Source: Parcubacteria group bacterium
GTDB lineage: Bacteria > Patescibacteriota > Patescibacteriia > UBA1558 > GWA2-36-10
Assembly (NCBI GenBank): GCA_003104935.1
Contig: PQAE01000002.1
Coordinates: forward strand, 3,527-67,526
Length of the DNA: 64,000 nucleotides
Direction of reading: 5' to 3'
A program made the translations under genes and the position numbers. Shown here piece by piece: positions 45,740 to 64,000 of this stretch; position 1 is the stretch's first letter; each line of letters begins with the position of its first letter. Below the pieces are notes generated by a model, which worked only from the letters and a program-made list of their open reading frames with translations, did not search any database and was not told the origin of the DNA.

Positions 45740-45743
45740 GAAA

Positions 45744-46370
45744 CTATTTCTCCGCTTCCAAAATTAAGGTTAATCCTTGGATAAAAAATATTCTTTGCAC
45801 TTTAGATATAAAATCCGGCGATAGATTAAACATTCGGATTAATCTGCCCAGACCGGTGTGACAGCGAAAATCGGTAGAAATCTTAATTTTTTTAAAACCG
45901 GCATCCAAGGCCACTCTTTTTAAACTTTCCTTTGTAAAAGGTCGCAAATGGGTGTAATCATCCCAGAAAAACCTGTTTAAAGCATAAGGGCAATTTGGCG
46001 TCAGAATCACTGCTCGGCCGCCAGCTTTTAGTAAACGATGTATCTGCTTCATAAAAACCAAGGGATTACCGAGATGCTCAATGAGCTGTTTAGCATAAAT
46101 CCCCTGATAATAATCTCCCGGCAATTGATCCAATTCTGCCGGTATATCAATCTTCTTTACTTTCAGGCCGCGCTCCCAGCAAATTTTCAGAGAATCATTG
46201 TCTTTTTCTATGCCTTCGATAATATCGGGATGGGTGGCGATGAAATTTCCGGTGGCGCAACCCATATCCAAAATCGGACCGGGATTATTTTTAAACCAAC
46301 GGTCAAAATAAAAATTTTCAAACCAGAGGTTTTCCTTGGACTTATACTGGTGGTTAGAGTAGTAGCTCAT
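45744..46370 (-). CDS. Class I SAM methyltransferase
   Basis: LDMGCATG, IEHL, LKAGG, FWDDYTH. Confidence 0.85.
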   Translation of the reverse strand: MSYYSNHQYKSKENLWFENFYFDRWFKNNPGPILDMGCATGNFIATHPDIIEGIEKDNDSLKICWERGLKVKKIDIPAELDQLPGDYYQGIYAKQLIEHLGNPLVFMKQIHRLLKAGGRAVILTPNCPYALNRFFWDDYTHLRPFTKESLKRVALDAGFKKIKISTDFRCHTGLGRLIRMFNLSPDFISKVQRIFFIQGLTLILEAEK

Positions 46371-47436: not shown

Positions 47437-47437
47437 A

Positions 47438-48469: not shown

Positions 48470-48470
48470 A

Positions 48471-49619
48471 CTAACCGGCTAGTCTTTGCCAAAAGTCAAA
48501 AATCTTCCGCTCGGCCAAGGCCTGACTATAACTGGCCGCATACTTTTTCTGAGCGGCCGATCCCGTCAGTTTGACCAAGTCATGTTCGCTTAGTAACAAA
48601 TCTAATTTATCCACAGTCTGTTTCAAATTATTCACGCCCACCAGCCAACCGGTCTGCTCATCATCTATAATAGTCGAGGCCCCCAAAGTGTGTGAAGCCA
48701 ATGTCGGTGTGCCTCGCAAACCGGCTTCGATAATAACTTTGCCGAAACTTTCATTGGTTGATAAAAGTAAGAGTAAATAAGCGGCCTGATAATAATCTAC
48801 TAAAAGTTGCTGTTCTTTTTCGCCCAGCAAATATACTTGCTCCGGCAAATAATTTTGATCGATTAAAGTATGGATATGGCCGCGCTGGTTTCCTTCACCG
48901 ATAATCAGCAAAACAAAATCGTCGCGGCGTTTTTTTAATTCTTTAATTGTTTGCACCATAAAAAGCAGATTTTTCGCCGCGACCAAGCGTCCGACAAAAA
49001 GCAAAATCTTTTTCCCGTATTTGTTTTGGATTTCCCGCACCTTATCTCCAGCGGGACTGAGCGCAAATATTTTTTCGTTTATGGGTGTGTTGATTACTTC
49101 TATTTTATCGGACACCATTCCGGAAGCAACTAATTTATCTTTTATTTTTTGACTAACCACTCTGATGCCCTGTGCCTGGCGCACTACTTTTTTCTGAATA
49201 ATATTATAAATGGGATTTTTCCAGGATTCTCTCAGCCAATAATCATTGTCCCAGAAATCCCCGTGAAAATGCACTTCCAGTGGTTTTTGAAAACGCCTCG
49301 CCAGCCAAGAACCCACTAGTCCGGTGGCGTGCGGATCCTGACAATCAATCAAATCATATTTATATTTAGCAAATAATTTCTTGCCCCAAGAAAAAGCGCG
49401 GACCATAGAAAAAATATTATTACCCAGACCATAGGCCCGACAATTATCCGCCAGATCGCTGATCCCCACGGCCCCGTTGCCGATGACGATGATGTCTAGC
49501 CTTTTTAAATGGCCGGCATAAGCCCGATGTCTTTGCGCCACATCTATTTCATCCCCGTGCTTTAACAGGCCGGGGTCGGTACTGATCATTAAAATGGATA
49601 TTTCAGCTAAGGGCTTCAT
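48471..49619 (-). CDS. GT4 glycosyltransferase
   Basis: FVGRL..AKN, ESFGKVIIEA. Confidence 0.9.
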   Translation of the reverse strand: MKPLAEISILMISTDPGLLKHGDEIDVAQRHRAYAGHLKRLDIIVIGNGAVGISDLADNCRAYGLGNNIFSMVRAFSWGKKLFAKYKYDLIDCQDPHATGLVGSWLARRFQKPLEVHFHGDFWDNDYWLRESWKNPIYNIIQKKVVRQAQGIRVVSQKIKDKLVASGMVSDKIEVINTPINEKIFALSPAGDKVREIQNKYGKKILLFVGRLVAAKNLLFMVQTIKELKKRRDDFVLLIIGEGNQRGHIHTLIDQNYLPEQVYLLGEKEQQLLVDYYQAAYLLLLLSTNESFGKVIIEAGLRGTPTLASHTLGASTIIDDEQTGWLVGVNNLKQTVDKLDLLLSEHDLVKLTGSAAQKKYAASYSQALAERKIFDFWQRLAG

Positions 49620-49620
49620 A

Positions 49621-51066
49621 TTATCGGGTAACGAATTTTTTAGCTAATTTGAATTCTATTGGGAAAGCAAAAAATTTCAATTTCCATCGCAATTTGCATA
49701 AGAGCACAAAGCCCAATTTCAGCCAGTGATTGGCTTTGATGCTTGATCCCATGGCATTTTTGACGCTGTGTGCCCCAAAGCGGACATAAGCCTCCATAGA
49801 TTCCACAAAATCCTTATCTTTTACCCAGGGAAAATTTTGCACCGTCAGATAGCTAAGTTCATTGGAGATCAAGTGCGACCACTCCTGTGTGGTTTGCGGC
49901 GCGCGCCAGCCCGACTGGATACACTCTTCGTATAGCTCCGACCCGGGATAGGGGCGGAATGCCTGCGGTCCTAAAATCTGAATTTTATCCGAGAGTTTAA
50001 CCAACTTGTCAATCAAATCCAGAGTCTGCATCATATCTGACTTAGTTTCTCCGGGCAGACCGATCATGAAAGAATATTGAGGGATGATCCCGCTCCGCAA
50101 ACACATCTCAGCCGAACGGATAACATCAGCCGCGGTCATATCTTTCTTTATCTTGCTTAAAATAATGGGACTGCCTGACTCGGCGCCGAAAGAAAGCAAA
50201 TAACAACCCGAGGCCTTGAGCTTGTGCAAAAAATCCTGACCGATTACGCCTTCTTTGACATAAGCGGCGCGCACCGTAGTTTCCCAAGGTATTTGCAAGC
50301 CGCGCTCGATCATACCATCAATGATGGCTTTGGCCCGGTTAATATCCACAAAAAAATTCTCGTCCCAAAAACGCACGCCCTTACCGGTAAAATATGGCTT
50401 GTGCTTGATGATGTCCACATCACTTAAAACTTGTTCCACGGTCCGGGCTCGCCAGCGATTGCGCAAAATAGCATTGATGCAAAAAGTACAACGGTGCGGA
50501 CAGCCACGGGAGGTCAGTGATGGCACTAAAGCTAAATTTTTTAAAACACTATCCGGCATCAATTCCCACTTAAATAGCGGCGTTTCCGAAACAACGTGTA
50601 GCTCCCGAGGTTTATTAATCTTTATATTTTCGCCTTGTTTATAGACTATGCCGTCTATTTCCTCCCAGGGTCGGCCGCTAACAATATCATAAGCAGTTAG
50701 TTCGCCTTCCCCTACACAGACGATGTCAATCACCGGCTCGGTGATAGTCTGGTCCTTGAAAAAAGTGGGATGAGTGCCGCCCCAGATAATCTTGCAACCT
50801 GGATTGAGTTCCCTAATCAGCTGGCTGATTTCCAAAGCGTGCGGTAACTGAGTGGTCATAACCGAGATGCCGACATAATCAAAGTCCTTGATTTTTTCTT
50901 TGATCAGATCCAAATAATTTTTCTGCCGGGCGCCGTCTACGATCTCCACCGGCACGCCTTTACTGTCCAGATAGGTAGCGATGCTTAATAATCCCACGGA
51001 AATGGAGCTGTCGTAGTTTTCCTTGGCGATATTAAAAGGCGGATTAATTAATAATATTTTTCTCAT
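49621..51066 (-). CDS. B12-binding radical SAM enzyme
   Basis: N-terminal B12-type domain (GGTHPT, GEGE), SRGCPHRCTFC, DENF, GAESGS, FMIGLPGE. Confidence 0.9.
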   Translation of the reverse strand: MRKILLINPPFNIAKENYDSSISVGLLSIATYLDSKGVPVEIVDGARQKNYLDLIKEKIKDFDYVGISVMTTQLPHALEISQLIRELNPGCKIIWGGTHPTFFKDQTITEPVIDIVCVGEGELTAYDIVSGRPWEEIDGIVYKQGENIKINKPRELHVVSETPLFKWELMPDSVLKNLALVPSLTSRGCPHRCTFCINAILRNRWRARTVEQVLSDVDIIKHKPYFTGKGVRFWDENFFVDINRAKAIIDGMIERGLQIPWETTVRAAYVKEGVIGQDFLHKLKASGCYLLSFGAESGSPIILSKIKKDMTAADVIRSAEMCLRSGIIPQYSFMIGLPGETKSDMMQTLDLIDKLVKLSDKIQILGPQAFRPYPGSELYEECIQSGWRAPQTTQEWSHLISNELSYLTVQNFPWVKDKDFVESMEAYVRFGAHSVKNAMGSSIKANHWLKLGFVLLCKLRWKLKFFAFPIEFKLAKKFVTR

Positions 51067-52208
51067 TTTAATTCCTCCAATAACCGGGCAGTTTGATTTA
51101 TGTTTTCCTGCCAGTTAAATTTTGCTAATTTTGTTTTGGCGTTTTTGACCAGTCGAGTAGCTAGGTCGGGATTACTAAAAATATTTTCCGTTGCCGCCAG
51201 CAACTGCTCCGTATTATTATACTCAACCAATAAACCCTCCTGATTGTGTTCTATAACTTCCGGATTGCCGCCGACATTAGTAGTGATGATCGGCACCTCG
51301 GCCTTCATGGCCTCAAGCAAAGTATGTGACAGACCCTCGTAATTGGTATTCAAAATAAATAGATTGGCCGCCCGCAGATAATTTATTACTTGCTGTTGTT
51401 GCACCTTACCGATAAATTTCACTTGTTCATTTAAAGCCAGTTGCGCGGTCAGCCGCTGTAGTTTCATTAATTCCGGGCCCGCGCCTAAAACCAATAACTG
51501 CACAACGCCGAATTTCCTCTGTAAAGGTTTTAATATCCTAATTATTCCGTCTATACCTTTCCAGGGCATCAGACGGCAAGCGGTTACGATTACCTTAGAT
51601 CCGGGTGTAAAATGTTTCTGGATATCCTCCACAGCCCGAGGATCAATCTGTTCCTCTAGCCAATCGACCGAATTGTAAATCAGCTTTATTTTATTTTTTG
51701 CCACACCGATTTTTTCGGCTACAGTCGACAAAAAATTACTGACCGCGATAACGCCGTCGGCTTGCAGTAAAATCAGGCGGCGGCGTTCTTTTAATTTTTC
51801 TATTTTTTGGCCATAGACTTTTTTTTCAAAATCTAAAATATAATCCGTGGTCCAACTCCTAGCCGTAGCGGTTTCCCAGGCGGCATCGCCAGCAAAACGT
51901 ATTACATATTTTTTGCCCAGAAATCTCTTTAGTAAATAAGCGAAATAACCCACACTGTATACATCAGTAACGTAAATAATATCTGTTTTTTTGGCTAATA
52001 TTAGCATCTTTACGAAGTAACGCAAAAATTTGAACGGCCTATTTTTTAAAATCCGGTGCACTTTATCGCCGCTGACATTTTTATCAGCGTAAGTGATAAC
52101 CTCGATTCTGAAACCGCGCTGTTCCAAAGAATGCACCAATGAATTGATGATAGTGGCCGGACCGCCAATATCAGGAGGATATATTCCTGTCGCAATCAAT
52201 ACTTTCAT
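51063..52208 (-). CDS. GT4 glycosyltransferase
   Basis: YPPDIGGPA, RL.PWKG, YEGLSHTLLEAM. Confidence 0.92.
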   Translation of the reverse strand: MKVLIATGIYPPDIGGPATIINSLVHSLEQRGFRIEVITYADKNVSGDKVHRILKNRPFKFLRYFVKMLILAKKTDIIYVTDVYSVGYFAYLLKRFLGKKYVIRFAGDAAWETATARSWTTDYILDFEKKVYGQKIEKLKERRRLILLQADGVIAVSNFLSTVAEKIGVAKNKIKLIYNSVDWLEEQIDPRAVEDIQKHFTPGSKVIVTACRLMPWKGIDGIIRILKPLQRKFGVVQLLVLGAGPELMKLQRLTAQLALNEQVKFIGKVQQQQVINYLRAANLFILNTNYEGLSHTLLEAMKAEVPIITTNVGGNPEVIEHNQEGLLVEYNNTEQLLAATENIFSNPDLATRLVKNAKTKLAKFNWQENINQTARLLEELK

Positions 52209-52211
52209 AAA

Positions 52212-53348
52212 TTAAATCATTTTTTCCTGAAATATTAAACCGATTTTCCGGGCAATTACGTCACAATTATATTTTTCTCTGACCAATCTTTGCGCCTGCT
52301 CTTTTACTTTCCGATATAATTCGTGATCATGAACGTATTTTTCTACAGCCAAAGCAATACTCGCCGGATGCTTTAGCTGACAAAATAAACCGGTCTCTCC
52401 CTCGATTATAAAATCCGACAGAGATCCGATAGACGGACCAATCGTGGGCACACCCATGGCCATGGATTCTAAAAACGACCTGCCCAATGTGGGTATTGTC
52501 GTGGGTTTGATAAAAATATCGGCTATTTCCAGATAACGGGCGACTTCGCCGGGCTCCTGCTGACCCGCCAAGAGCACATAATCACCGACGGAAAAATCAG
52601 CGGCCAACTGGCTGAGCTTCATAGCTCCAGCACCGTCACCCACCAAGATCAAAACTGCCGGCAAACCGCTTTTATAAATTATAAAGTTTAATGCCTTGAT
52701 CAAATCCGCCTGGCCGTTTGTCTGGTTCAGGTCTCCGCAACTGATCAAAACCAGATCGTCTGGTTCTATACCTAACTCGCGCCGAAAATTAATTTTCTCC
52801 TCTGTCGTCAGCCGCGGCTGAAAAATACTTTGATCCATTCCGGACGGAATTAAAAAAATTTCCGCCTTGGCGCCGAACTTGCGGCAACGTTGGCCTAAAA
52901 ATTTATTTACCACTTGGATACATTTGGCTTTGCGGTAAATGCGTTTGAAATAAAATCCCCATAATTGGATTTTCTTTTTCAGCTCCTCACTGGTGGCCGT
53001 ACTTTGTTCGGTTAAAAGATAAGGCACTTTACTGCGATTTCGAAATAATAAAGTAGCCAATCCCGAGCTCAGGGTGTCCAAGCACCAGGCAAAATCAAAC
53101 TTGATTGCTTTATGTAAATTAGCCGCCATAGCTATAGCACGCCAGGTAAACATATATTTGTCAATCCTACTACCATTTCCGACAAAATAGACATTAATAG
53201 GCCCCAATTTGCCCTGTTTTGGGCTATTTTTATCAAATCTATCAGTAATCAGATAAAAATCAAAATCCGGCAAACGAGAGCAGGTCTCCCGCAAAGCCGT
53301 TTCTGTGGTTTGGGCTAAAGAATATGAAAAAATCAATATTTTCTTCAT
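52212..53348 (-). CDS. GT4 glycosyltransferase with a degenerate motif
   Basis: GT-B layout, but GDLNQTNG replaces R...KG and PTLGRSFLES replaces EG.G...LEA. Confidence 0.75.
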   Translation of the reverse strand: MKKILIFSYSLAQTTETALRETCSRLPDFDFYLITDRFDKNSPKQGKLGPINVYFVGNGSRIDKYMFTWRAIAMAANLHKAIKFDFAWCLDTLSSGLATLLFRNRSKVPYLLTEQSTATSEELKKKIQLWGFYFKRIYRKAKCIQVVNKFLGQRCRKFGAKAEIFLIPSGMDQSIFQPRLTTEEKINFRRELGIEPDDLVLISCGDLNQTNGQADLIKALNFIIYKSGLPAVLILVGDGAGAMKLSQLAADFSVGDYVLLAGQQEPGEVARYLEIADIFIKPTTIPTLGRSFLESMAMGVPTIGPSIGSLSDFIIEGETGLFCQLKHPASIALAVEKYVHDHELYRKVKEQAQRLVREKYNCDVIARKIGLIFQEKMI

Positions 53349-53458
53349 CCCGTTAGAAATTTATCAATATATTAAACATTTTTAAAAAAATAAGACCTTC
53401 TATCTCAATTGATTTATTGCCTACTAAAATTTATAAATATGTAAAATTTATAACGGGA
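53348..53458. mobile_element. 111-bp MITE-like element with 15-bp TIRs (1 mismatch) and TTCA target duplication
   Basis: ttca|TCCCGTTAGAAATTT...AAATTTATAACGGGA|ttca; AT-rich non-coding core. Confidence 0.7.
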
Positions 53459-53471
53459 TTCATACTCTGAC

Positions 53472-53527
53472 TTGCTTTATCGGCATAAATCAAATAAAAT
53501 TATAACAGGATTGACGATATAAATCAA
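53472..53527. promoter_or_regulatory. Overlapping oppositely oriented promoters: + TTGCTT-N17-TAAAAT; - TTGATT-N17-(TGn)TATAAT
   Basis: + strand 53472-53500, - strand 53527-53499; -10 boxes overlap. Confidence 0.55.
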
Positions 53528-53535
53528 TATAAATT

Positions 53536-54747
53536 ATGCCTAATATTAGCCAAAACGAACAAAGGCCCACGGAGCTAAAAGACAAAAAAATCCTTTTTGT
53601 GGTTACCCAGACCAAATGGGGCGGTGCCCAAAAGTATGTTTTAGAGCTGGCCCAGTACTTTAAACAGCACAACGAGGTGCACATTGCCTACGGCCAGACC
53701 AAGGAGCTTAACCCCAAGTTTATAGAGCTCTGCCAAAAACTGGAAATCAAGACAATTCCTCTGCCGTCTCTGGCCAGAAACATAGATCTGGGCAAAGATT
53801 TTCTGGCCGCCCTGGAATTACAAAAAGTTTTGAGCAAAGAAAATTATCAGCTCATACATCTCAATAGTTCCAAAGCCGGAGCGATCGGAGCGCTGGCCGG
53901 ATTGCTCTATGGCTTAAATCCTATGAACACCCGACTGCGCATAGTCTATACTGCCCACGGTTTTGTTTTTAACGAACCGGGTTCTAAATTCCAAAAATTT
54001 CTATATAAGACGTCGGAAACAATTTCCACCACTTTGCAAAGCGTGATTATCGCCGTCTCGGACTATGACCGCCAAAGCGCGATTGATTTCAAGGTAGTGC
54101 CGGCCGGAAAGATATTTACCGTGCACAACGGCGTGGATCCTAAGGATTATATTTTTCTAAGCCCGGAACAAGCACGGCAAGAATTGGGACTATCATCCGA
54201 TAAAAAATATTTCGGCACTATCGCCAGCTTTTACAATGTCAAAGGATATAATTATTTGGTGGAAGCTATCGGACAATTACGGGATAATAATTCTCCATTA
54301 ATTTCAGATCATCGCTGGATATTTATCGGTGAAGGTCCGGAGTTGGAACGCATCAGTAAACAGATCAACGACAACAAATTAAATGATTTGATAACGATAG
54401 TAGCCCCCAAAAACGACGACTGGAAATATCTGCCTGCTTTTGATTTTCTGATTTTGCCCTCGGTCAAGGAAGGATTGCCCTATGTCCTGCTGGAGGCGGG
54501 ACTGGCGCAGGTACCGAGCATAGCCAGTCATGTCGGAGGCATACCGGAAATCATCATTGATGGCCAGACTGGACTGCTGACCACCGCCGCCAATCCCCTC
54601 TCTTTAATTGACGCTATGAATAAATTTGCGGAAAATAAAAAATTAGCCGACACTCTGGCTAAAAATAATTACCAAAATATTTTGACTAATTTTAGTCTGA
54701 CTAAAACTCTGCACCGGACCGAAGAAATCTACCTCAAGCTTTTTTAA
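53536..54747 (+). CDS. GT4 glycosyltransferase
   Basis: WGGAQKYV, HLNSSKAG, YTAHG, KG, EGLPYVLLEA. Confidence 0.92.
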   Translation: MPNISQNEQRPTELKDKKILFVVTQTKWGGAQKYVLELAQYFKQHNEVHIAYGQTKELNPKFIELCQKLEIKTIPLPSLARNIDLGKDFLAALELQKVLSKENYQLIHLNSSKAGAIGALAGLLYGLNPMNTRLRIVYTAHGFVFNEPGSKFQKFLYKTSETISTTLQSVIIAVSDYDRQSAIDFKVVPAGKIFTVHNGVDPKDYIFLSPEQARQELGLSSDKKYFGTIASFYNVKGYNYLVEAIGQLRDNNSPLISDHRWIFIGEGPELERISKQINDNKLNDLITIVAPKNDDWKYLPAFDFLILPSVKEGLPYVLLEAGLAQVPSIASHVGGIPEIIIDGQTGLLTTAANPLSLIDAMNKFAENKKLADTLAKNNYQNILTNFSLTKTLHRTEEIYLKLF

Positions 54748-57532
54748 TCTCTTCTGTAGCTAATTTTAATCCGTCCTTAAAGGGCAGGGTAAACTGGAAA
54801 GTACTGCCTAGCCCCTTGCCTTCGCTCTCGGCCCAAATCTGACCGCCATGCTCTTTGATCATTTTTTGCGCTATAAACAAACCCAGTCCGGAGCCGCCGG
54901 TATGGATCTGGGCTACGCCCGATCCGCGCACAAACTTCCGAAACAAACCGCCGACTTCAGCCGGATCGATGCCAATACCGGTGTCTTTGACCATGAAGGT
55001 CAGAAAGTCCTGATCATATTTAGTGGATACAATAACCGCACCCTGGGGAGTATATTTGACGGCATTATCCACCAGATTGATAATAACATTGCGAATCTTG
55101 TCCGGGTCAGCTACGATCATCGGTGTAGATTTATCGGCCTTGAAATTTAACTTCAGGCCTTTTTTAATTACCTGATTCTGCAATTCCGCGACCACCGAAT
55201 CAATCAGATTATTTATTTGGATAGGATGCTTGTCCAGCTTGAGATGACCGGACTCAATGCGGGAGACATCCAAAAAAATATCCACCTGGCGGGCTAACCG
55301 GTTAGAGCTTTCATAAACTCCGGCCAGCACTTCCTTGATCCGCGGACTGGTAACCTTGCCAAAATCCCCGTCCATCAACATGGACAAATACCCTTTGATG
55401 GCCGAGATCGGGGTGCGCAATTGGTGCGAGGCGATGGACAAGAACTCGGACTTGGCTTTGTCCAGGTCGCGCAAATGCATATTGGCTTCCTGCAAATCGC
55501 GATTGGCTTTTTGGAGATTATTATATAATTTAAGATTACTGGAAACTATACCGACCTGGTTGGTCAAAGCGGTCATGGTCTCGATGTCCATCGAGGATAT
55601 CTTGGTTTGTTCTATTTTCAGAAAAAACTGAACCACGCCGATGATACCTCCCTCAGAATAGACCGGAATACAAACCACACTCTTTACCCCCAAAACCTTT
55701 TGGATAGTATCAATGATTGCTTTACTAACCGGCGGCGACAAAAAATCCGAGATCTTGGCGGACATATTTATCTTGCCGGACATAAAAGTCTGCACGCCCA
55801 GATTATAGCCCTCTTGCAGAAGCGAACGATAATTAAACGGATCCTGAGGCAACATCTTTAGCACCTGGGCGGTAAATTCATTTTGAGTAATGGCCGCCAT
55901 CTTTAGTGAGTTACTTTCTTTATCTACAAAGCTAAGTAAGCCGCCGACATAACCCAGCTCTGAGGCGATACTGTTGGCGATGGCCTGATTGACTTTATTC
56001 AGATCCAAACTGCGACTAATCAAAGTACTGACCCCCTGCATCGTAGTCAAAAACTTATTGCGCTCTTCCAGGCTAAGATTGGCCACGCTCAAACTCTTGG
56101 TCCGCTCTTCTACCTTGACCTGCAAACTGCGGTTTAGTTCTTCCACGTCTTCATAAAGTTTTGATTTTTCCAAAGCCGTGGCGATCTGGGGCATCAGCAC
56201 CTCAAAAAAGTTTATTTCCTCACTACTGTAGAGATCACCGGACTGCTTGGCACCAAAAAACATGATGGCCGTCAGGCGCTCGGTCTCCACAATAGGCAGA
56301 ACCATTTCAATCTTCTTGGTCTCGGCTTCTTGAATAAAATAGTCGATAGCTTGATAATCAGCGGTGTTTTCCTTAAAATTTTCCTTGTCGCGTAAAAACT
56401 CGTCCAAGACTATTAGCTTGCGGTGTTTTTTGACAAAATTTATGAAATCCACACTAAGACTGGTGGCAATATCTACACCGCTTTTAGCAGTTAGTTCATA
56501 ATGGTCGTTGGTAGCCAGCCAAAAAGAAACTTTTTTTATTTTTAATTCTTTGACTAAGCTGTCGACAAATTTCTGAAGTAAGTCCTGTAGATCTATTTCC
56601 CGGGCCAGCACCAGACCCACTCTCTGCAAAACTTTTTGATAATCGATTTTATCCTTATAAAAAATGGAGTCGGTGATTCTAGCCCAGACTCGTTTTACTG
56701 GATCAAGCGCGAACACCACAATAGTAGCCGCGACAATATAGACAAATATTTTGCTTACCTGTGTATTTGCACCTAAATACGTGCTAGCCAAAAATACTGA
56801 TAAAGAAAAGAAACTTGCAACAGCACCTACTAATACCGTGTAAAGAATACTACGAGTTACTATCAGTCTTATGTTCATTAATCGGTATTTTACAATTGCA
56901 TACGCCATTAATATGGCGTACAGTGAAACAAAAAAATTACCTGCCGGATAAAAATCCACATCGAAATCCAGTAAAAAATTAGTTGACCCACCTATAATTC
57001 CCACTAACGAGGCATAAAGCATGTATTGTAATCTTTTCTTTTTGTACCCAACATTAATTCTTGTAGAGCTATACAAAAGAAATAAACTATAGGCAAGAAC
57101 TGCAACAAAAAAAATCACAAAATATGCGTACATCCCTCCTGTTGCTACTGGCCAATATCCAAAACTATTCCTTGGTAATATGTTTTTTAAAAACAAACTA
57201 GAAAAACTAAATATCAAGAAAAATAAAGTAGCCAAATAGACAATTTTCAACTTTATCCTATTTGTATCATAATAGTTAGTCAAATATAATGTATAATGAA
57301 AGAAAAAAGCTGGTAACAATATTGTCCCTATATACAAAACTCTTTGAGAAAAAAGGGCAGAGCCTTCATGTTGCGACACAACGCTACCAAACAATCCAAT
57401 GGTCCATAAAAAAATAGCCAAACTGTTTAAAAACCATAGTTTATTAATAACTCCTTTCCTTGTTAACACAAAAATTCCTAATATAAAGGTGAGGATCGCT
57501 GTTGTTAAACAAGAAATTGCAAAAAAGTTCAT
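54734..57532 (-). CDS. Sensor histidine kinase: N-terminal 7TM (HisKA_7TM-like) plus extra TMs, two GAF-like domains, HisKA, HATPase
   Basis: Hydrophobic N-terminal ~280 aa (AYAIVKYRL); GAF-like segments; SIASHQLRTP, NLVDNAVKYT, DTGIG, GSGLGL, GSTF. Confidence 0.92.
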   Translation of the reverse strand: MNFFAISCLTTAILTFILGIFVLTRKGVINKLWFLNSLAIFLWTIGLFGSVVSQHEGSALFSQRVLYIGTILLPAFFFHYTLYLTNYYDTNRIKLKIVYLATLFFLIFSFSSLFLKNILPRNSFGYWPVATGGMYAYFVIFFVAVLAYSLFLLYSSTRINVGYKKKRLQYMLYASLVGIIGGSTNFLLDFDVDFYPAGNFFVSLYAILMAYAIVKYRLMNIRLIVTRSILYTVLVGAVASFFSLSVFLASTYLGANTQVSKIFVYIVAATIVVFALDPVKRVWARITDSIFYKDKIDYQKVLQRVGLVLAREIDLQDLLQKFVDSLVKELKIKKVSFWLATNDHYELTAKSGVDIATSLSVDFINFVKKHRKLIVLDEFLRDKENFKENTADYQAIDYFIQEAETKKIEMVLPIVETERLTAIMFFGAKQSGDLYSSEEINFFEVLMPQIATALEKSKLYEDVEELNRSLQVKVEERTKSLSVANLSLEERNKFLTTMQGVSTLISRSLDLNKVNQAIANSIASELGYVGGLLSFVDKESNSLKMAAITQNEFTAQVLKMLPQDPFNYRSLLQEGYNLGVQTFMSGKINMSAKISDFLSPPVSKAIIDTIQKVLGVKSVVCIPVYSEGGIIGVVQFFLKIEQTKISSMDIETMTALTNQVGIVSSNLKLYNNLQKANRDLQEANMHLRDLDKAKSEFLSIASHQLRTPISAIKGYLSMLMDGDFGKVTSPRIKEVLAGVYESSNRLARQVDIFLDVSRIESGHLKLDKHPIQINNLIDSVVAELQNQVIKKGLKLNFKADKSTPMIVADPDKIRNVIINLVDNAVKYTPQGAVIVSTKYDQDFLTFMVKDTGIGIDPAEVGGLFRKFVRGSGVAQIHTGGSGLGLFIAQKMIKEHGGQIWAESEGKGLGSTFQFTLPFKDGLKLATEEIKKA

Positions 57533-58227
57533 TTTTTAAGGTAAACCAATACTAAAAAAATTAAATAATAAAAAAAGTTTTTTTTCTTAAGCCACGAAAA
57601 AAAAATTTCCTTTGATATCCTCCCTCCATGAAAATCTTCTGGGTTGCAGTTTCTAATATAATCCAGACAAACATTTGAAATAAAAAATTTAAGCCTGTTC
57701 TTATAAGAAATTTTTCTGCTAGTATAACTATCAATATTTTTTACTAGCCCGCTTTCATCTATTAAATATTTCTTATCAATAAAATTAATATAGTCATTCG
57801 GCATACTCCAATTATGATCATATTCATATCCAAATAGCTTAATCTTTTTCTCTAGGTCTCTGTCTATCGAGCAGTCAAGTTCTGTCGTCGTACTATTGTA
57901 TTTAACAACAACAAAAAAATGAACAGAATTCTCTGATAAATAATTTGCTATCTCTGTTATGGTGAAACGTCCGAATATTCTCCTAGCATTTATCCTTAAA
58001 ATCTTGTAGTACGTTTCAAAACCGTTATCTGATAACAACTTATGAAGGAGACGGCTTTTGGTAGTGCACATCCCATTTCTAACACGTAAAACTTTTTGAG
58101 GTTCTAGAGTCCAATCCCCAAATTTGTAATTTACATTATCTTTTACAAATAAAAATAATTTTTCTACTAAGTCTTCACCCCTGTGTAGTTTTATTATGCC
58201 TTCTAGTCTATTCGCCAAACTTATCAT
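57529..58227 (-). CDS. Transglutaminase-like protein (Cys-His-Asp)
   Basis: GMCTTKSRLL, SVHFFVVV, ELDCSID; hydrophobic C-terminus. Confidence 0.78.
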   Translation of the reverse strand: MISLANRLEGIIKLHRGEDLVEKLFLFVKDNVNYKFGDWTLEPQKVLRVRNGMCTTKSRLLHKLLSDNGFETYYKILRINARRIFGRFTITEIANYLSENSVHFFVVVKYNSTTTELDCSIDRDLEKKIKLFGYEYDHNWSMPNDYINFIDKKYLIDESGLVKNIDSYTSRKISYKNRLKFFISNVCLDYIRNCNPEDFHGGRISKEIFFSWLKKKNFFYYLIFLVLVYLKK

Positions 58228-58855
58228 AGACGATTTTTATAAGCTCCTTTGCAATATTAGTTTTCCCCGCGACTTCTTTAACACCTCTTTCGTAAACTAT
58301 ATAAACTCTATGATTATTTTTCATTTCTCTAAAATCGTTAGCCACTATCACATCCGCGTTTGCTCTGTCCTTACTCTTTTTTGCAACCTCTAGTAGTTCT
58401 TCCCTATTCTTGTCAACTTCTAATTTAAACATTATTAAAAAAATGCTAGCGTCTGCTTTTTTAAACAAATCCACAATTTTTTCTGTGGGCACTAGATGCA
58501 ATACTAATTCAGGTTGTCCTGATTTTATTTTACCCTCCTTGTAATCAGCTAATTTATAGTCCGAAACTGCGGAAGAATGAATCACAACATCATAATCATT
58601 CTTAATCTCTCTTAAAACTAAGCTGTACAAGTCATCGTAATATTTATATCTAACAATATTAAGACCTTTCTTAAAAGATTCCTCTATTTCGATATCAGAA
58701 TTACCCAATAATAACTTTACTTCCGCTCCCGATTCGACAAACTCTTTAGCTATTTCAATGCCCAACCTACCTTTAAATATATTTGTTATGACCCTAACAC
58801 TATCAATAGGTATATATGTGCTACCCGCGGTAATTAAAACTTTTAGTTTTTTCAT
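58208..58855 (-). CDS. coaB: Stand-alone phosphopantothenate-cysteine ligase-like protein (CoaB/DFP domain)
   Basis: VLITAGST.IPIDSVRVITN..KG.LG, HSSAVSDY, KIKS, FKLE, IVAND. Confidence 0.85.
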   Translation of the reverse strand: MKKLKVLITAGSTYIPIDSVRVITNIFKGRLGIEIAKEFVESGAEVKLLLGNSDIEIEESFKKGLNIVRYKYYDDLYSLVLREIKNDYDVVIHSSAVSDYKLADYKEGKIKSGQPELVLHLVPTEKIVDLFKKADASIFLIMFKLEVDKNREELLEVAKKSKDRANADVIVANDFREMKNNHRVYIVYERGVKEVAGKTNIAKELIKIVYDKFGE

Positions 58856-58859
58856 TGAT

Positions 58860-59417
58860 TTAAATATTTTTTTCGATTGTTTTAATAATGTTTTCTGTCT
58901 CCGCTACTTTGCCTATTCCTTCGTCTCTGCATGCTAAAAGTCCTGGCTGTGGATCTTCAAATATGTATTTATTATCTATTTTTTTTAAATAATCTACATT
59001 GTCCTGAGTTATCCTGTTGAGCCACATCTCGGTATTCATAGCTGGTGCGATGACCACCTTCTTATTTTGTGGTAGCGCCATAATTACAGTAGTTAACATG
59101 TTGTCTGCTATACCATTCGCCAACTTGCCGATAGTATTAGCGGTTGCTGGTGCCAATACAAATATGTCACACCATTTAGCGAGAGAAATATGTTCCACTT
59201 CTTCAGCGTTGATTGATGAAAACATGTCAGTGTATACAGCCCTATTCGTTAGAGCCTGGAACGTTATGGGAGTAACAAATTTAGTAGCCGCTTCAGTCAT
59301 TATTACTCTAACCTCCGCGCCATTCTTCAATAACTGATTAATCAAAGTAGCAATCTTGTATGCTGCAATGCCCCCAGAGATACCAACTAATATTTTTTTT
59401 CCTTGTAACTTACTCAT
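58860..59417 (-). CDS. coaC: Stand-alone phosphopantothenoylcysteine decarboxylase-like HFCD flavoprotein (CoaC)
   Basis: GISGGIAAYK, EHISLA, APATANTIGKLA.GIADN, PAMNT.M, LAC.DEG.G. Confidence 0.9.
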   Translation of the reverse strand: MSKLQGKKILVGISGGIAAYKIATLINQLLKNGAEVRVIMTEAATKFVTPITFQALTNRAVYTDMFSSINAEEVEHISLAKWCDIFVLAPATANTIGKLANGIADNMLTTVIMALPQNKKVVIAPAMNTEMWLNRITQDNVDYLKKIDNKYIFEDPQPGLLACRDEGIGKVAETENIIKTIEKNI

Positions 59418-59435
59418 AGTATTATTATCATTTTA

Positions 59436-61139
59436 TTATATATATTTTATTCTTTCCAAGACTCGATTTCTCCTCAACTTCAGCGTCGGCGTCAGTGATC
59501 CATTTTCTTGCGTAAACTCCTCGGCTAACAATTTAAAATTACTGATCTGCTCTACCTCGGACAAATGCGTTATTTTTTCATTTATTTTTTCCTGATAAAA
59601 ATCTAATATTTTTTGTTCGCCTAGATTGAAAGCCACATTATTTTTCCGGCACCAGATCTTTAACTGCTCAAAATTTGGCACAATCAGCGCGGAAATATGT
59701 TTGTCTCTATCACCATAAACCATGCTCTGACTGATATAGCGGCTCTCATTGAGAGTATTTTCTATGGGCTCGGGAAAAATATTTTTGCCCGTAGATAATA
59801 CTATCACATCTTTGGCCCGGCCGATAATGGTGATAAAGCCCTCTTTATCCATAAAACCCAGGTCACCGGTATGGAGCCAACCCTCGGCATCAATGATTTC
59901 CGCTGTCTGGGTTTCATTTTTATAATATCCGGCCATGACATTTTCACCCTTGACTAGTATTTCCTTATCAACGCTGATTTTAACCTGATTACAATCAATG
60001 GCCTGGCCCACGGTGCCAAAACGCCTAAACCCCTGGTGGTTCACCGAGATAATCGGACTGGTCTCAGTCATGCCATAACCTTCCAATATAATAATGCCTA
60101 GGTCATCAAAAAAACGGATTATTTTTGTGTCCAACGAAGCGCCCCCGGAAATAGCCAATCTTAATTTAGCTCCAAAAATTGCCCGAATTTTGCGCAGGAC
60201 GATCAGATCCAAAAAACTCCATTTGATCATTCCCCACCTGTTTAATTTTCTGGCCCGTTTGGCCACAGCCAGCTGTAGACTATTAAAAAACAATTTCTTT
60301 TTGGAATTACTACCGGCTTCTACCTTATCAAAGATCGTGCCGTAAATCTTTTCAAAAATTCTGGGTACGCTGGACAATATGGTCGGGCGCGCCCGGCGGA
60401 TATCTTCAATAATAGTTTTACTGCTCCGGGCAAAAAATATGCTGGCGCCGGCTGACAAAGGCACATAATAACCGGCGGTGCGTTCAAAAGCGTGCGACAA
60501 GGGCAAAAAAGAAAAAAATCGGTCAGTGGGGTAAATCGGTATGACCCGCTTGGCCGACTCTACGTCACTAATAATATTATGGTGAGTCAACATCACGGCC
60601 TTGGGGTCGCCTGTGGTGCCCGAAGTATAGACGATAGTATGTACCGCATCGGGCAAGATCTGTTCCGCTTTGATATTTGTCTCGGATACATGGTCTAAGT
60701 CCGGCCAGATCAATGTCTTATTGCTTTCGTCATTTATCTGTCCGCCCACTAAGATGACCTTTTGCAGGGGCAATTTATTGATAACTTCTTTGTACTTATC
60801 AAAATACTCTTTGTAGATTATTAAAAATTTTGAGCCGCTATGTTCAACAATACGGCTGATATACTCGGCATTAAACGTCGTGTGAATCGGCACTACTACC
60901 AAACCAAGGGTCGCCGCCGCCAGATCGCTCATGATCCACTGCGGACTATTGGTCAGCATGACAGCGATCTTATCTCCCTTTTCAGCGCCGATATTTCTCA
61001 AAAAGACCGCTAATTTCAGACGATATTGCTCTAATTGCCAATAGCTGATGGTTTGGTAACGCCCTGCCGACAGAAAAGCCAAAGCAGTATTGCTGTTATA
61101 TTGATTAGCTACCTGTGCAAATTTTACTGCTATATTCAT
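59436..61139 (-). CDS. fadD: Long-chain fatty acid-CoA ligase-like AMP-dependent synthetase
   Basis: YTSGTTGDPK, FLPLSHAFER, EGYGMTE, GWLHTGDLG, GR.KD, LTPTLK. Confidence 0.88.
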   Translation of the reverse strand: MNIAVKFAQVANQYNSNTALAFLSAGRYQTISYWQLEQYRLKLAVFLRNIGAEKGDKIAVMLTNSPQWIMSDLAAATLGLVVVPIHTTFNAEYISRIVEHSGSKFLIIYKEYFDKYKEVINKLPLQKVILVGGQINDESNKTLIWPDLDHVSETNIKAEQILPDAVHTIVYTSGTTGDPKAVMLTHHNIISDVESAKRVIPIYPTDRFFSFLPLSHAFERTAGYYVPLSAGASIFFARSSKTIIEDIRRARPTILSSVPRIFEKIYGTIFDKVEAGSNSKKKLFFNSLQLAVAKRARKLNRWGMIKWSFLDLIVLRKIRAIFGAKLRLAISGGASLDTKIIRFFDDLGIIILEGYGMTETSPIISVNHQGFRRFGTVGQAIDCNQVKISVDKEILVKGENVMAGYYKNETQTAEIIDAEGWLHTGDLGFMDKEGFITIIGRAKDVIVLSTGKNIFPEPIENTLNESRYISQSMVYGDRDKHISALIVPNFEQLKIWCRKNNVAFNLGEQKILDFYQEKINEKITHLSEVEQISNFKLLAEEFTQENGSLTPTLKLRRNRVLERIKYI

Positions 61140-61358: not shown

Positions 61359-62162
61359 TTAATGTAATAACCTAGCGGCTCTATCTTCTGCGCTTTGTAT
61401 AGCTGATTTAACTTCTTTTTCTATAATCTTATCAAGACGCTCTAATGAAATAAGGTTTCTGGAAAATTCGTTTTGTTTAGCTTTATTATGAAAATATTTA
61501 AAATTAGTTCCTTCACACTTCCATAAAAACCATTTTCCACTCCTTTTACGCAGATGATTATTATAAATCTTTACTTGTGTCATTATTTCTATACCTTGTT
61601 TGATAAATTTATCAATAAACTCATCTACGGCATTAGCAAATCCTTCAAGATTGTAGGCATAGTCTTCTCTTTGCCGAGCAGAATCTGGATTTTGATTTTG
61701 CCTCATCAAGGCTATATGTAGTTCGTTTTTTCTTAGTAAATCTGCAAAATCATTTCTAAGACCTGCTACTGTCTCATTTGTCTCTTTAATGCCAGCATCT
61801 GCCCATAAAATCTTATTATGTAGATAATAACTTTTTATCTTAAAATTTGGCACCTCTACATCACGATAAACATCTCGTATAGTTGGATAATTTGTGGTTT
61901 CAAGAGAAAAATTACGTTTGCCTGCTGTGGCTCTTATTCGAGTCACTAGGGCTCTTAATCTTGAAACAAACGCCTGTAATTTTTGGCGTGTTTTATATGT
62001 ATCATCTAAACTTCTAGTTATACTAATTTCTATTCGCCGCAGATGCTCTTTACGTTCTTCTTTCTTGCTTATTACTACCTTAAACCAAGCACCGAGACCT
62101 AAAAGAAAAGGACCAAGTGCAGCTCCAATCAATGTTTGCCATTTTGATAAGAAATCTATCAT
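61359..62162 (-). CDS. Hypothetical protein with N-terminal TM and helical body
   Basis: 267-aa AT-rich ORF, WQTLIGAALGPFLLGLGAWF; no motif recognised. Confidence 0.7.
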   Translation of the reverse strand: MIDFLSKWQTLIGAALGPFLLGLGAWFKVVISKKEERKEHLRRIEISITRSLDDTYKTRQKLQAFVSRLRALVTRIRATAGKRNFSLETTNYPTIRDVYRDVEVPNFKIKSYYLHNKILWADAGIKETNETVAGLRNDFADLLRKNELHIALMRQNQNPDSARQREDYAYNLEGFANAVDEFIDKFIKQGIEIMTQVKIYNNHLRKRSGKWFLWKCEGTNFKYFHNKAKQNEFSRNLISLERLDKIIEKEVKSAIQSAEDRAARLLH

Positions 62163-62206
62163 AAGTATACGCTCAATGGCGACCTAAAGACATCCGGTTA
62201 ATCAAG

Positions 62207-62449
62207 TTATACTAAATCTTTCTCTGCATCAATTCCATCCAAACTAATATCTTTCAAATCTATTTCAAAAGCTTCAGCTTGCTGTTGCAAAATAGAAACT
62301 ACGCTATAATAAGCTAATAAATTACCTTCATTGAAAGAATTTCTCTCTTTCTTTAGTTTATTTTTAGACTCTAAAGCGTCTTCCTTTATTAGTTTAAAGG
62401 TATCTGCTATAAATCCTAGATACTTGTTACTATTATTTTCTTTATCCAT
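62207..62449 (-). CDS. Putative immunity protein for the upstream Rhs C-terminal toxin
   Basis: 80 aa, acidic, starts 7 bp after the toxin stop. Confidence 0.7.
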   Translation of the reverse strand: MDKENNSNKYLGFIADTFKLIKEDALESKNKLKKERNSFNEGNLLAYYSVVSILQQQAEAFEIDLKDISLDGIDAEKDLV

Positions 62450-62456
62450 GTTTATA

Positions 62457-63272
62457 TTACTTTAAATTATTTAATATACCCTTCAATATGTTTTGTTGCT
62501 CTTGATTGCGTTGTAAATGTTTTTCCCATTGTCTAATTTGACCTTGTATGTACTGTTCACTGGCATTTCCGAAATCATTAATATACTTGGCTGGATTCTG
62601 CAACTTTTCAATATGCTCTTGAATCCGTTTTCCAAAACTCTGCATACCCTTCTTTAATTCTGCAGCTGATTTATCTAAATACTGCATCATCCAGTTATGG
62701 TGTTTACCGGCACTAGCCAACGAACTACTGTATGCTCCCTCAGCACTACCGATTACGCGATCAATTTGCGCCTGACTAGCAGCATATTTTGTAGATAGCC
62801 CCGTACCTAATCTCTCTTCTATGCCACCTAATAGTAGGATTACACCAAATTTCTGAGGACCACTCCAATTATTATATGGCTCATAAATTGACCCCACAAA
62901 ATCTCTAGATTCACTAGAATTTACAGTTGCTGGATTATAATCATTTCCTGGTGCTTGGGCGACTGGTATGTTCCAAAAAAGCGATGAAAACGCGACTCCA
63001 AGTGCAAACAATATTGGATTATTTCCATCAGGATCCGTATATTTAACCGGATTATTCCCAGCATAACTATAACTGTTCAAATTCTGTGGGTTAGCCAGTT
63101 GTTCTTGAACACTTCTACCATAGGCCTTGGTAAAAGCCTGGTCATCATTTATTATGAAAAGTGCCGGATCTATGGAATTAAACCTCCCCGTAGTATTATC
63201 TAAGTATCTAGCACCGTAGTATTGTAGATTGTTCTCTTGGTCTAATTCTTTACCGGTATAGATTATTTGCAC
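62457..63272 (-). CDS. Orphan Rhs core fragment plus C-terminal toxin domain
   Basis: YTGKELD...YYGARY.D...GRF.SIDP, N.YSYAGNNPVKYTDPDG, followed by a ~190-aa variable tail. Confidence 0.9.
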   Translation of the reverse strand: MQIIYTGKELDQENNLQYYGARYLDNTTGRFNSIDPALFIINDDQAFTKAYGRSVQEQLANPQNLNSYSYAGNNPVKYTDPDGNNPILFALGVAFSSLFWNIPVAQAPGNDYNPATVNSSESRDFVGSIYEPYNNWSGPQKFGVILLLGGIEERLGTGLSTKYAASQAQIDRVIGSAEGAYSSSLASAGKHHNWMMQYLDKSAAELKKGMQSFGKRIQEHIEKLQNPAKYINDFGNASEQYIQGQIRQWEKHLQRNQEQQNILKGILNNLK

Positions 63273-63327
63273 TACACCTGCTCCAGAATAAGGACTTTTA
63301 ATTAAATTACCTAAGAGATTCTCATTT

Positions 63328-63645
63328 CTAAGACCATCTGGGTCCGTGAGGATCTGTCTGTATAATTAAACCACCATATATTGCCTCAAGTTCTCCTTCG
63401 AAATCTAAAAATTCCGTGCCTGTATTAATTTGCCATACGCCCCTTGAACCTTTTGTATGTATAATAGCGCTTCCATCTTTTAACCTTTTTATCATAATAT
63501 CTAACAGTTCCGCTCTATTATAATCACTGAAACATCCAGCTTCTTTAAAATGCTTTTCAACTGCTTCTTCTGGCGAATCAACTTCGTATTGCTCTACCGC
63601 GAAAGTAAAATCCGCAAATGTTGTGGTTACTGTAAATAATTTCAT
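63328..63645 (-). CDS. Putative immunity protein
   Basis: 105 aa, acidic, starts 10 bp after the upstream toxin-like stop. Confidence 0.6.
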   Translation of the reverse strand: MKLFTVTTTFADFTFAVEQYEVDSPEEAVEKHFKEAGCFSDYNRAELLDIMIKRLKDGSAIIHTKGSRGVWQINTGTEFLDFEGELEAIYGGLIIQTDPHGPRWS

Positions 63646-63655
63646 AAAATATTTA

Positions 63656-64000
63656 TTATTTAATATGCTTAATTAATGATTGAAGACTATTTTTAATACC
63701 CTGCAAACGGTTTTTCTCTATCTTATTCAAATTTTCGCTCTTAAATACATTTCTTATATTATTAATAACATTCCTAGCTTTTTCAGTATGAAATATGTCT
63801 TTAGTCTTATTTCCGGTCATTATTTCATTCCTTAGCGCACCCATCGTACCTCCAGGAATTGTATCACTTGTTTTAAATACGGATTTTAGGGTATTAACAG
63901 CCCTACTATTTTCAATGCCTTTCAACATTTTGCTCTGCTGGGCTACTGCATCAAAATTCTTAGCCTTATTAGCAAGTTTAGCAACATCATCAACTTTAGT
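63656..64000 (-). CDS. Partial C-terminal polymorphic toxin domain, 5' end outside the window
   Basis: Frame is open to the window end (TKVDDVAKLANKAKNFDAVAQQSK-MLKG...); basic tail GGTMGALRNEIMTG....FH.EKA. Confidence 0.65.
   Translation of the reverse strand, partial: TKVDDVAKLANKAKNFDAVAQQSKMLKGIENSRAVNTLKSVFKTSDTIPGGTMGALRNEIMTGNKTKDIFHTEKARNVINNIRNVFKSENLNKIEKNRLQGIKNSLQSLIKHIK

Follow-up and report, generated by a model that had tools for sequence, protein, structure and literature searches.

The closest known counterparts of the locus presented here are the alpha-hydroxyketone quorum-sensing pairs CqsA/CqsS of Vibrio and LqsA/LqsS of Legionella, in which, according to the sections of the source consulted, an acyl-using synthase is paired with a kinase whose membrane domain reads the product with matched specificity (PMC3285556). 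Adjacent synthase and kinase genes have also been listed for the Candidate Phyla Radiation (CPR), where the consulted part of one survey gives 51 adjacencies with CqsA homologues, 18 with LuxI homologues and 3 with PpyS homologues, and proposes a function in quorum sensing (Bernard et al., 2020, PMC7567580). Here we describe a locus within 64,000 nucleotides of an ultra-small Parcubacteria group bacterium (contig PQAE01000002.1, positions 3,527 to 67,526; this whole stretch is referred to as the window, and plain coordinates follow its numbering), namely an operon that runs from an acyl-CoA ligase through coaC, coaB and a transglutaminase-like gene (TG) to a histidine kinase with a seven-transmembrane (7TM) sensor domain. 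The central part of this operon, comprising the three small enzyme genes and the sensor domain, is one of several alleles that occupy a single slot in related genomes. A parallel is offered by the agr groups of staphylococci, in which a variable segment containing the signal determinant and the membrane domain of the receptor is exchanged as a block between conserved flanks, the alleles being variants of homologous peptides. Like agr, the locus described here has a membrane domain that is exchanged together with neighbouring genes between conserved flanks, the enzymes being the putative signal determinant; unlike agr, it has alleles drawn from enzyme families that are unrelated to each other, and the signals predicted for them are small molecules other than peptides.

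All five genes lie on the minus strand. In order of transcription they encode a long-chain, FadD-like acyl-CoA ligase (59436..61139; 567 amino acids (aa); PF00501, E 2e-76), a CoaC-like HFCD flavoprotein predicted to decarboxylate cysteine amides (58860..59417; 185 aa; PF02441 Flavoprotein, E 1e-37), a CoaB-like ligase of a clade marked by the motif N-[IV]-F-x-G (58208..58855; 215 aa; PF04127 DFP, E 3e-38), TG, a transglutaminase/NAT-fold enzyme predicted to be an acyltransferase or amidase (57529..58227; 232 aa; Cys54-His103-Asp118), and the kinase (54734..57532; 932 aa), in which Pfam recognizes HisKA_7TM, two GAF stretches, HisKA and HATPase_c. The gaps between successive genes are 18, 4, -20 and -4 bp. 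Residues 1 to about 260 of the kinase constitute the HisKA_7TM sensor domain (56750..57532, minus strand; PF16927 over residues 9-221, E 1e-10), while the GAF-GAF-HisKA-HATPase_c core (54734..56749, minus strand; Pfam) contains its H-box at residue 702, N-box at 819, G1 at 850 and G2 at 880; Pfam, the structural model and a check of motifs agree that the N-terminal 7TM domain and an intact HisKA/HATPase are present in the same protein. A preliminary description of this DNA had named the same five co-oriented genes with these gaps, including the overlap of the TG stop with the kinase start, and Pfam upholds the domains it had assigned to the ligase, CoaC, CoaB and 7TM-GAF kinase. Its further proposal, that the five genes form one unit, holds for coaC, coaB, TG and the 7TM domain; the ligase and the kinase core belong to a fixed host locus.

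This division is evident from base composition. GC content at fourfold-degenerate sites (GC4) is 0.63 in the ligase, falls to 0.28 in coaC, 0.31 in coaB, 0.25 in TG and 0.33 in the sensor domain, and returns to 0.69 in the kinase core (codons 371-932), such that coaC, coaB, TG and the 7TM domain form a low-GC block between a host-like ligase and a host-like core. The genome of origin (G000; 975,546 bases in 12 contigs, completeness rating 100%) has a median GC4 of 0.60, with only 1% of 576 long open reading frames (ORFs) at or below 0.30, and the low GC of the block is not a membrane-protein effect because membrane-like host proteins have a median GC4 of 0.59 (n=31). When two change points are fitted to third codon positions, GC content at those positions is 0.29 inside the block and 0.51 outside it (log-likelihood ratio 109), and the outer limits of the exchangeable block are 56329..59651 on the minus strand, one edge falling within the last 70 ligase codons (59651-59441) and the other between kinase codons 257 and 402 (56764-56329). 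Comparable breaks are seen elsewhere: the 7TM part is lower in GC4 than the core in 22/22 kinases with core GC4 of at least 0.35, by more than 0.1 in 20 of them, and identity to same-family kinases bearing other cassettes climbs from about residue 200. An assembly chimera is ruled out by contigs from a second study, which run across the junctions of ligase with coaC (59265-59569) and of 7TM with core (56611-57136) and show zero differences. Sequencing runs containing half of the words were considered as a strain carrying another cassette and proved to hold scattered low-depth pieces of the same sequence; no RNA dataset was listed among those containing it, which carries no information about expression. 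Scans for promoters gave 25 sites against 19.7 +/- 5.0 in shuffles, and for terminator-like sites 11 against 5.8 +/- 2.1.

The contents of the slot were surveyed in 40 relatives and then in 85 genomes of the order, with comparison of the flanks. Among 47 order-level loci, the genes directly preceding the kinase comprise nine enzyme sets. The commonest is a PlsC-type acyltransferase, usually accompanied by a HAD phosphatase (16/47), followed by an alpha-oxoamine synthase of the CqsA superfamily (9/47), a methyltransferase only (8/47) and the CoaBC-TG set (7/47, two of which, G010 and G025, are cut by contig ends and show only TG or only CoaB). NadE with an acyl-ACP-reductase-like protein and a 532-aa protein of no assigned family each fill two of the 47, and one locus each holds a GNAT protein with a phosphatidylserine decarboxylase (PSD), a protein of no assigned family with a pyruvoyl histidine decarboxylase, and a methyltransferase with a FeeM-like protein; a locus outside the 47, L107, carries FeeM-like and ThiF proteins. 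Families of known signal synthases and two further decarboxylase alleles are included among the sister alleles, and genus g13 has five different alleles among six genomes. The preliminary description had called for a survey of alternative enzyme cassettes beside HisKA_7TM kinases, and nine sets in one slot is the outcome; its single new circuit, whose linkage to the kinase is real, becomes one allele of a multi-allelic slot.

Several of these alleles are of interest in themselves. The 532-534 aa protein (L108:2962-4557 and L043:7441-9042) has no Pfam or NCBIfam match, stands alone in the slot with its own 7TM clade and is a candidate uncharacterized synthase. In L119 (5710-7221), the pairing of a 235-aa protein of no assigned family with a pyruvoyl histidine decarboxylase suggests, from the enzymes encoded, a product of N-acyl-histamine type. 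Two loci contain a divided enzyme gene, coaB in two ORFs beside an intact kinase in L112 (2770-3464; G442) and an oxoamine synthase likewise in L118 (2962-4118; G444), and these are possible non-producing alleles or assembly errors.

The two halves of the kinase have different histories. Trees were built from 47 order-level two-GAF kinases, near full length and with an adjacent gene, together with four class-level CoaBC-TG kinases (51 in all); truncated kinases, one-GAF kinases and loci ending at the kinase start (e.g., L044, L056, L057, L107, L115, L124, L132-L137) were set aside, and ten cassette labels were used, the methyltransferases being split in two by their N-termini. On the 7TM tree the cassette label requires 11 changes (minimum 9; shuffle mean 31.1; 0/2000 shuffles that low), and on the core tree 29 (292/2000 shuffles as low). 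Conversely, the family label requires 5 changes on the core tree, which is the minimum, and 17 on the 7TM tree (6/2000 shuffles). Pairs from the same genus with different cassettes show a median identity of 22% in the 7TM domain versus 77% in the core (31 pairs), and pairs from different families with the same cassette show 40% and 43%, respectively (143 pairs); G452, from another family, is 55% identical to the G000 7TM domain and 40% identical to its core. The genomes are related, so that the shuffle statistics overstate the case, which counts against our reading; relatedness does not explain why two halves of one kinase should behave in opposite ways. The 7TM domain is exchanged with the enzyme set, and the kinase core, which follows taxonomy, is vertically inherited.

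The CoaBC-TG allele extends well beyond the order. In a class-level sample, 19/400 genomes contain a CoaB match, and four of these 19 (G054, G170, G208 and G059, of two other families) have a coaC-TG-coaB-7TM kinase arrangement; in a phylum sample of 400 genomes, no CoaB reached the level of the cassette enzymes (best E 2e-38). When metagenomes were scanned with a 62-row alignment, at least 554 relatives were confirmed, and the best 80 of these, selected therefore for this CoaB clade, were retained. Seventy-nine of these loci have a CoaB ORF, accompanied by TG in 67, CoaC in 65 and a co-oriented downstream 7TM in 58, and where at least 1.5 kb was available on both sides, CoaC, TG and 7TM occur together in 34/39, which confirms the conserved linkage to the kinase that had been anticipated from the one locus. 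Clustering at 90% reduces the 79 to 58, with the full set in 39/58. Gene order differs among the metagenome modules, with TG often between coaC and coaB; some modules carry an extra or TG-fused methyltransferase, and the module is found on kinases of about 530, 736 and 921 aa. Locus L180 (3-9504) contains tandem modules, PlsC, HAD and a 7TM kinase being followed by ligase, coaC, coaB, TG and a second 7TM kinase.

What might such a block do? From the sequences alone, we consider it somewhat better than an even bet that the block is a matched signal synthase and receptor, that is, a specificity allele, and that it makes a cysteamine amide, which is probably acylated. In the proposed mechanism, CoaB would activate a carboxylate with a nucleotide and couple it to cysteine, the Phe found in place of Ser212 suggesting an unphosphorylated, more hydrophobic acyl end, and CoaC would decarboxylate the resulting cysteine amide to a cysteamine amide. 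TG would transfer an acyl group to an amine, for example beta-alanine, the simplest donor being host-derived acyl-CoA provided by the ligase, and the result would be N-acyl-(beta-alanyl)-cysteamine; alternatively TG may cleave the amide. The product would partition into the membrane, bind the 7TM pocket and shift kinase activity towards one of eight stand-alone receivers. Crossovers at two points, close to the 3' end of the ligase gene and close to TM7, would carry synthase and receptor over as a pair. The acyl-beta-alanyl-cysteamine route is preferred because it keeps normal recognition by CoaB and CoaC and accounts for the Phe, TG and the ligase; as an exact structure N-acyl-(beta-alanyl)-cysteamine is nevertheless doubtful, and our commitment extends to the class of cysteamine amides.

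The CoaB and CoaC proteins resemble the halves of CoaBC (Dfp), as characterized in the consulted part of PMC7794376, in their folds, in equivalents of M. smegmatis R207, N211 and D281, in the first lysines of K-X-K-K, and in the CoaC His and Cys. The active-site residues named there match CoaB R21, N25, D99 and K109, which correspond to E. coli R206, N210, D279 and K289. Unlike CoaBC, the cassette proteins have N-[IV]-F-x-G for N-x-S-[ST]-G and KIKS for K-X-K-K, with a flap loop that is short (as it is, with KISS, in PDB 2gk4), and upstream and downstream pathway genes were not found. A hydrophobic residue replaces E. coli E200 in the cassette CoaBs; in G000 this residue is Ile, S212 is replaced by Phe and S213 by Lys. 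The Phe, F27 of the G000 protein, is invariant in 62/62 aligned rows. Position 212 is S in 7/7 named housekeeping sequences and F in 9/9 cassette CoaBs, and Ser is retained in 5/5 fused CoaBC motifs from genomes of the same phylum; an Ala-type motif occurs in 22/120 CoaB matches. The carboxylate that CoaB would couple to cysteine is likely not 4'-phosphopantothenate. NIFSG was considered as a possible housekeeping form in Omnitrophota; P0080 is 77-80% identical to the TG-linked CoaBs L183, L197 and L203 and, by sequence identity, looks cassette-type. A stand-alone divergent CoaB (N-L-A-K-G) lies beside FabH and two Nudix genes in L139 (2815-5687), a Priestia plasmid, and recurs on several Priestia plasmids.

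The phylogenetic comparison with housekeeping enzymes separates CoaB more clearly than CoaC. Cassette CoaBs and amidohydrolase-linked CPR CoaBs group together (support 1.00), and the seven housekeeping CoaBC halves fall outside their clade. The CoaC of G000 scores 218 bits with TIGR00521 on this half alone, its His, PAMN and Cys align with E. coli H75, PAMN and C158, and the catalytic His, PxMN and Cys are present in 9/9 cassette CoaCs, which form one clade (0.94) nested, in a small tree, without support among housekeeping CoaCs. The separation expected in the preliminary description therefore stands for CoaB and is not clear for CoaC.

The remaining genes for CoA synthesis were sought throughout the genomes, some of which are only 65-91% complete. 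By profile search, coaX (PF03309) was found in 0/1 (G000) and 0/5 other cassette genomes and coaA (TIGR00554) in 0/10, including the whole 976-kb genome of G000, negatives that cover type I and III pantothenate kinases, the type II search having matched no control and archaeal pantoate kinase and phosphopantothenate synthetase (PoK/PPS) not having been searched. For coaD, the best match in G000 reaches 24.9 bits versus a cut-off of 103.3, and six genomes gave only sub-cut-off matches. No coaE was found above cut-off in 11 genomes with a whole or cut cassette; the same search found it in 4/4 same-phylum genomes with fused CoaBC. The early observation that coaB and coaC are split and have no coaA/X, coaD or coaE nearby is accordingly correct and extends, at the cut-offs used, to the genome, where type I/III pantothenate kinase, phosphopantetheine adenylyltransferase and dephospho-CoA kinase were not found.

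Although TG falls under the cut-off on Transglut_core (E 0.014), its transglutaminase-like identity with a Cys-His-Asp triad, claimed at the outset, is sustained by 148 relatives, conservation of Cys54, His103 and Asp118 (71, 71 and 70 of 71 rows), the fold match and Atlas. The predicted model (pLDDT 95.6) gives tied VIA Z scores of 9.4-9.6 among TglA, 3isr, LapG, human NAT1 and PeiW; 3isr matches at Z 9.6 (rmsd 3.5, 125 aligned; profile match E 2e-9) and NAT1, tied with TglA, LapG and PeiW, at Z 9.5 (178 aligned, rmsd 5.4). Foldseek gave no match at E<=0.001. The protein has a hydrophobic C-terminal helix and lacks an N-terminal hydrophobic signal. Among 34 relatives scanned, three are fused to Nudix domains (P0130, P0144, P0166) and five to MMPL transporters or exporters (P0138, P0141, P0149, P0152, P0169); further relatives are fused to methyltransferase or cyclic-nucleotide-binding (cNMP-binding) domains. 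TG is predicted to be an acyltransferase or amidase, the data being compatible with acyl transfer and amide hydrolysis alike. The andrimid enzyme AdmF, also of the TG fold, reportedly has an amide-forming role. Recruitment of TG-fold and HFCD enzymes to small-molecule amide chemistry has precedent in andrimid synthesis, which uses a TG domain, and in holomycin synthesis, which uses a phosphopantothenoylcysteine (PPC) decarboxylase, as noted in the consulted part of PMC3826127. Unlike those enzymes, which act on carrier-protein-bound intermediates of non-ribosomal peptide and polyketide synthesis, the enzymes here are tied to a receptor and occur in a genome, G000, in which no carrier protein was found.

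The preliminary description had counted the ligase as part of the circuit, a view that is not sustained. The ligase is adjacent in 2/79 of the best-80 metagenome loci (1/32 with 3.5 kb upstream), and as a core module part it is ruled out by this figure together with the three trio carriers discussed below. In the order, by contrast, it adjoins 5/5 CoaBC-TG loci with flank, an orthologue was found in G444 and G467, and none was found in 8/8 searched methyltransferase-only genomes, which are spread over three families; the ligase therefore tracks, within this order, cassettes that could use acyl-CoA. With its host-like codon usage it is the fixed upstream anchor of the slot, and it likely supplies acyl-CoA to whichever cassette needs it.

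The 7TM domain was modelled as seven long helices (pLDDT 90.3) that match adhesion and class C G-protein-coupled receptor (GPCR) bundles (VIA Z 17.5, rmsd 3.8, 205 aligned, for ADGRL3; Foldseek E 9e-5), and its fold is accordingly predicted to be GPCR-like, a resemblance already noted for 7TM histidine kinases in the consulted part of PMC13581589. The G000 domain falls in a clade of 33, all CoaB-linked (support 0.94), 25 of which have a Cys at position 8; this Cys is present in 25/63 CoaB-linked 7TMs and 0/40 others, and, coming from one 7TM lineage, should be taken only as a lead. The kinase has no response regulator next to it. G000 has eight stand-alone receivers, in open frames of 122-145 aa.

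A number of observations weigh against the synthase-and-receptor reading. Firstly, CoaC looks ordinary and housekeeping-like, and the Ser212 loop is one that we take to be the 4'-phosphate site, the literature checked having given no residue-level confirmation. Secondly, the Phe motif is also found in a sister CoaB clade next to CoaC and an amidohydrolase, and no 7TM was seen in up to 14 kb around it, so the motif is not specific to the sensor. (The sister module, L095-L100 in G122, G333, G061, G354, G365 and G411, consists of an N-I-F-x-G CoaB, a divergent CoaC and an Amidohydro_2 enzyme; several copies adjoin a divergent regulator-like gene, presumably TrmB-like.) Thirdly, the trio can do without the ligase, since no orthologue was found in the trio carriers G054, G208 and G059, which gave only weak AMP-binding matches (43-48 bits). 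Fourthly, a co-oriented 7TM is missing from the 2 kb downstream in 7/37 loci for which that stretch was available, and the 7TM partners of the trio belong to at least four separate lineages, those of G447, G439 and G442 being only 18-19% identical to the G000 domain. Among 37 dereplicated complete modules, 7TM distance is uncorrelated with that of CoaB (r 0.08, p 0.23), CoaC (0.08) or TG (-0.10), while CoaB distance follows TG (r 0.40) and CoaC (r 0.34); fine co-evolution of enzymes and sensor was thus not found at depth, and only shallow clades match. The explanation is either that receptors of several lineages came to serve one class of product, or that the products are not the same. Finally, a sensor that reads a substrate would also account for its exchange together with the enzymes, and the data do not tell this apart from sensing of a product.

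This last point leads to the alternative that survives best, though we judge it unlikely, in which the 7TM domain would sense a host-derived CoA or pantothenate fragment as the substrate of the trio, which would salvage it (to pantetheine, or to a short thiol carrier for the ligase) or break it down to cysteamine. Such a host-cue module would suit a genome with a CoA-dependent ligase and no CoA pathway found, and the housekeeping-like CoaC, the Nudix fusions in 3/34 TG relatives, an ECF-type substrate-binding component in one sister allele and the amidohydrolase in the place of TG in the sister CoaB/CoaC clade all agree with it. Salvage, however, would be completed by coaD and coaE, which were not found, and an acyl carrier protein was not found in G000 and six others of 10 cassette genomes. 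Moreover, the alleles are mostly acyltransferases, condensing enzymes and methyltransferases, without a common catabolic theme, and the eight receivers are too short for a DNA-binding domain able to induce enzymes.

A second alternative, which appears distinctly less probable still, is that each allele turns scavenged fatty acids into a structural lipid, which here would be an amide lipid with a thiol head, and that the kinase monitors this lipid in the membrane of the same cell, without a role between cells. The prevalence of the PlsC-type allele with its HAD phosphatase, the allele combining GNAT with PSD, and the MMPL exporter fusions in 5/34 TG relatives are in keeping with an envelope function; five alleles among six genomes of one genus is more variety than a structural lipid would be expected to require, and a methyltransferase alone can fill the slot, the ligase being lost. 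It is very improbable that TG instead targets the kinase itself in the manner of LapG, as a cysteine protease or as an acyltransferase for proteins, with CoaB and CoaC supplying a thiol cofactor: the fold search places LapG level with NAT1 and TglA (Z 9.5-9.6), and the TG gene runs into the start of the kinase gene while its product carries a hydrophobic helix at the C terminus, yet TG follows CoaB (r 0.40) and not the 7TM domain (r -0.10), is often placed between coaC and coaB, and stays with these genes at loci without a 7TM (L176, L184). That ordinary CoA biosynthesis genes lie beside the kinase by chance is largely refuted, for although both enzymes match CoaB/CoaC models and split coaB/coaC genes also occur in housekeeping pathways (PMC8721197, in the part consulted), pantothenate kinase, coaD and coaE were not found, CoaB stands apart from housekeeping sequences with support of 1.00, and the four-gene linkage holds in 34/39 loci.

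Returning to the matched synthase and receptor, comparison with described systems brings out several differences. The nine alpha-oxoamine synthase alleles of the slot belong to the CqsA superfamily, though BioF/Kbl models give them higher scores than does the autoinducer-synthase model (209 versus a cut-off of 428). Unlike CqsA/CqsS, the CoaBC-TG allele has no pyridoxal-phosphate-dependent alpha-oxoamine synthase, and its sensor is a HisKA_7TM domain with a GPCR-like predicted fold, CqsS not being among the fold matches listed. In the parts of PMC7567580 consulted, neither allelic exchange of sensor domains nor the CoaB/CoaC/TG set is reported for the CPR adjacencies; in its nine supplementary files, "transglutaminase" occurs 0 times and "phosphopantothen" 58 times, the row shown being a TdaF-homologue match. 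A description of the CoaB/CoaC/TG-7TM module or its allelic exchange was not found in a search that mostly excluded subscription journals, nor was a reported ligand for HisKA_7TM domains in the portions of the literature searched (background also from parts of PMC5847659, PMC7770189 and PMC8205227). The preliminary view of a quorum-sensing-like circuit not previously described is thus tenable for the enzyme set, and not for CPR synthase-kinase adjacency, which is published (PMC7567580, as consulted). Signalling by a synthase plus a membrane kinase is known; the chemistry here is possibly new.

The surroundings of the operon include further features. Upstream of the ligase and outside the window, a conserved run (G000:C2:68657-72385), whose gene order recurs in many relatives, contains two stand-alone HisKA_7TM proteins (GC content at third codon positions 0.31), an asparaginase-like protein, a 191-aa protein and an alpha/beta hydrolase; the orphan HisKA_7TM proteins could be extra receptors. 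Low-GC Rhs-core fragments and small downstream ORFs, toxin/immunity-like, occupy window positions 61359-64000 and continue to G000:C2:74624, with a TIGR03696 match at 62457-63272, and interrupt the conserved locus in two blocks. At the other end, a long cluster of glycosyltransferase, methyltransferase and radical-SAM genes (43960-54747) converges on the kinase 3' end and was not seen downstream of kinases in those relatives inspected.

In its boldest form, which we put forward tentatively and at somewhat less than even odds, the proposal is of a new class of thiol autoinducer, in which CoA-pathway paralogues would build N-acyl-(beta-alanyl)-cysteamine to be read by a GPCR-fold domain, perhaps via the TM1 cysteine. 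This signal would be one of at least nine "languages" without chemical kinship, exchanged by Patescibacteria at a single locus in blocks of enzyme and receptor. If true, the swapped blocks would amount to a natural collection in which receptors of the orphan HisKA_7TM family come paired with their ligands, and as each allele consists of a HisKA_7TM domain and one to four small soluble enzymes, ligands could be tested without culturing the organism. A CoaB/CoaC pair functioning outside CoA synthesis would correct annotations that credit these genomes with a partial CoA pathway, and would add a new amide-thiol chemistry. Lastly, changes of signal type inside a genus would be relevant to the recognition of kin or host by these host-dependent cells.

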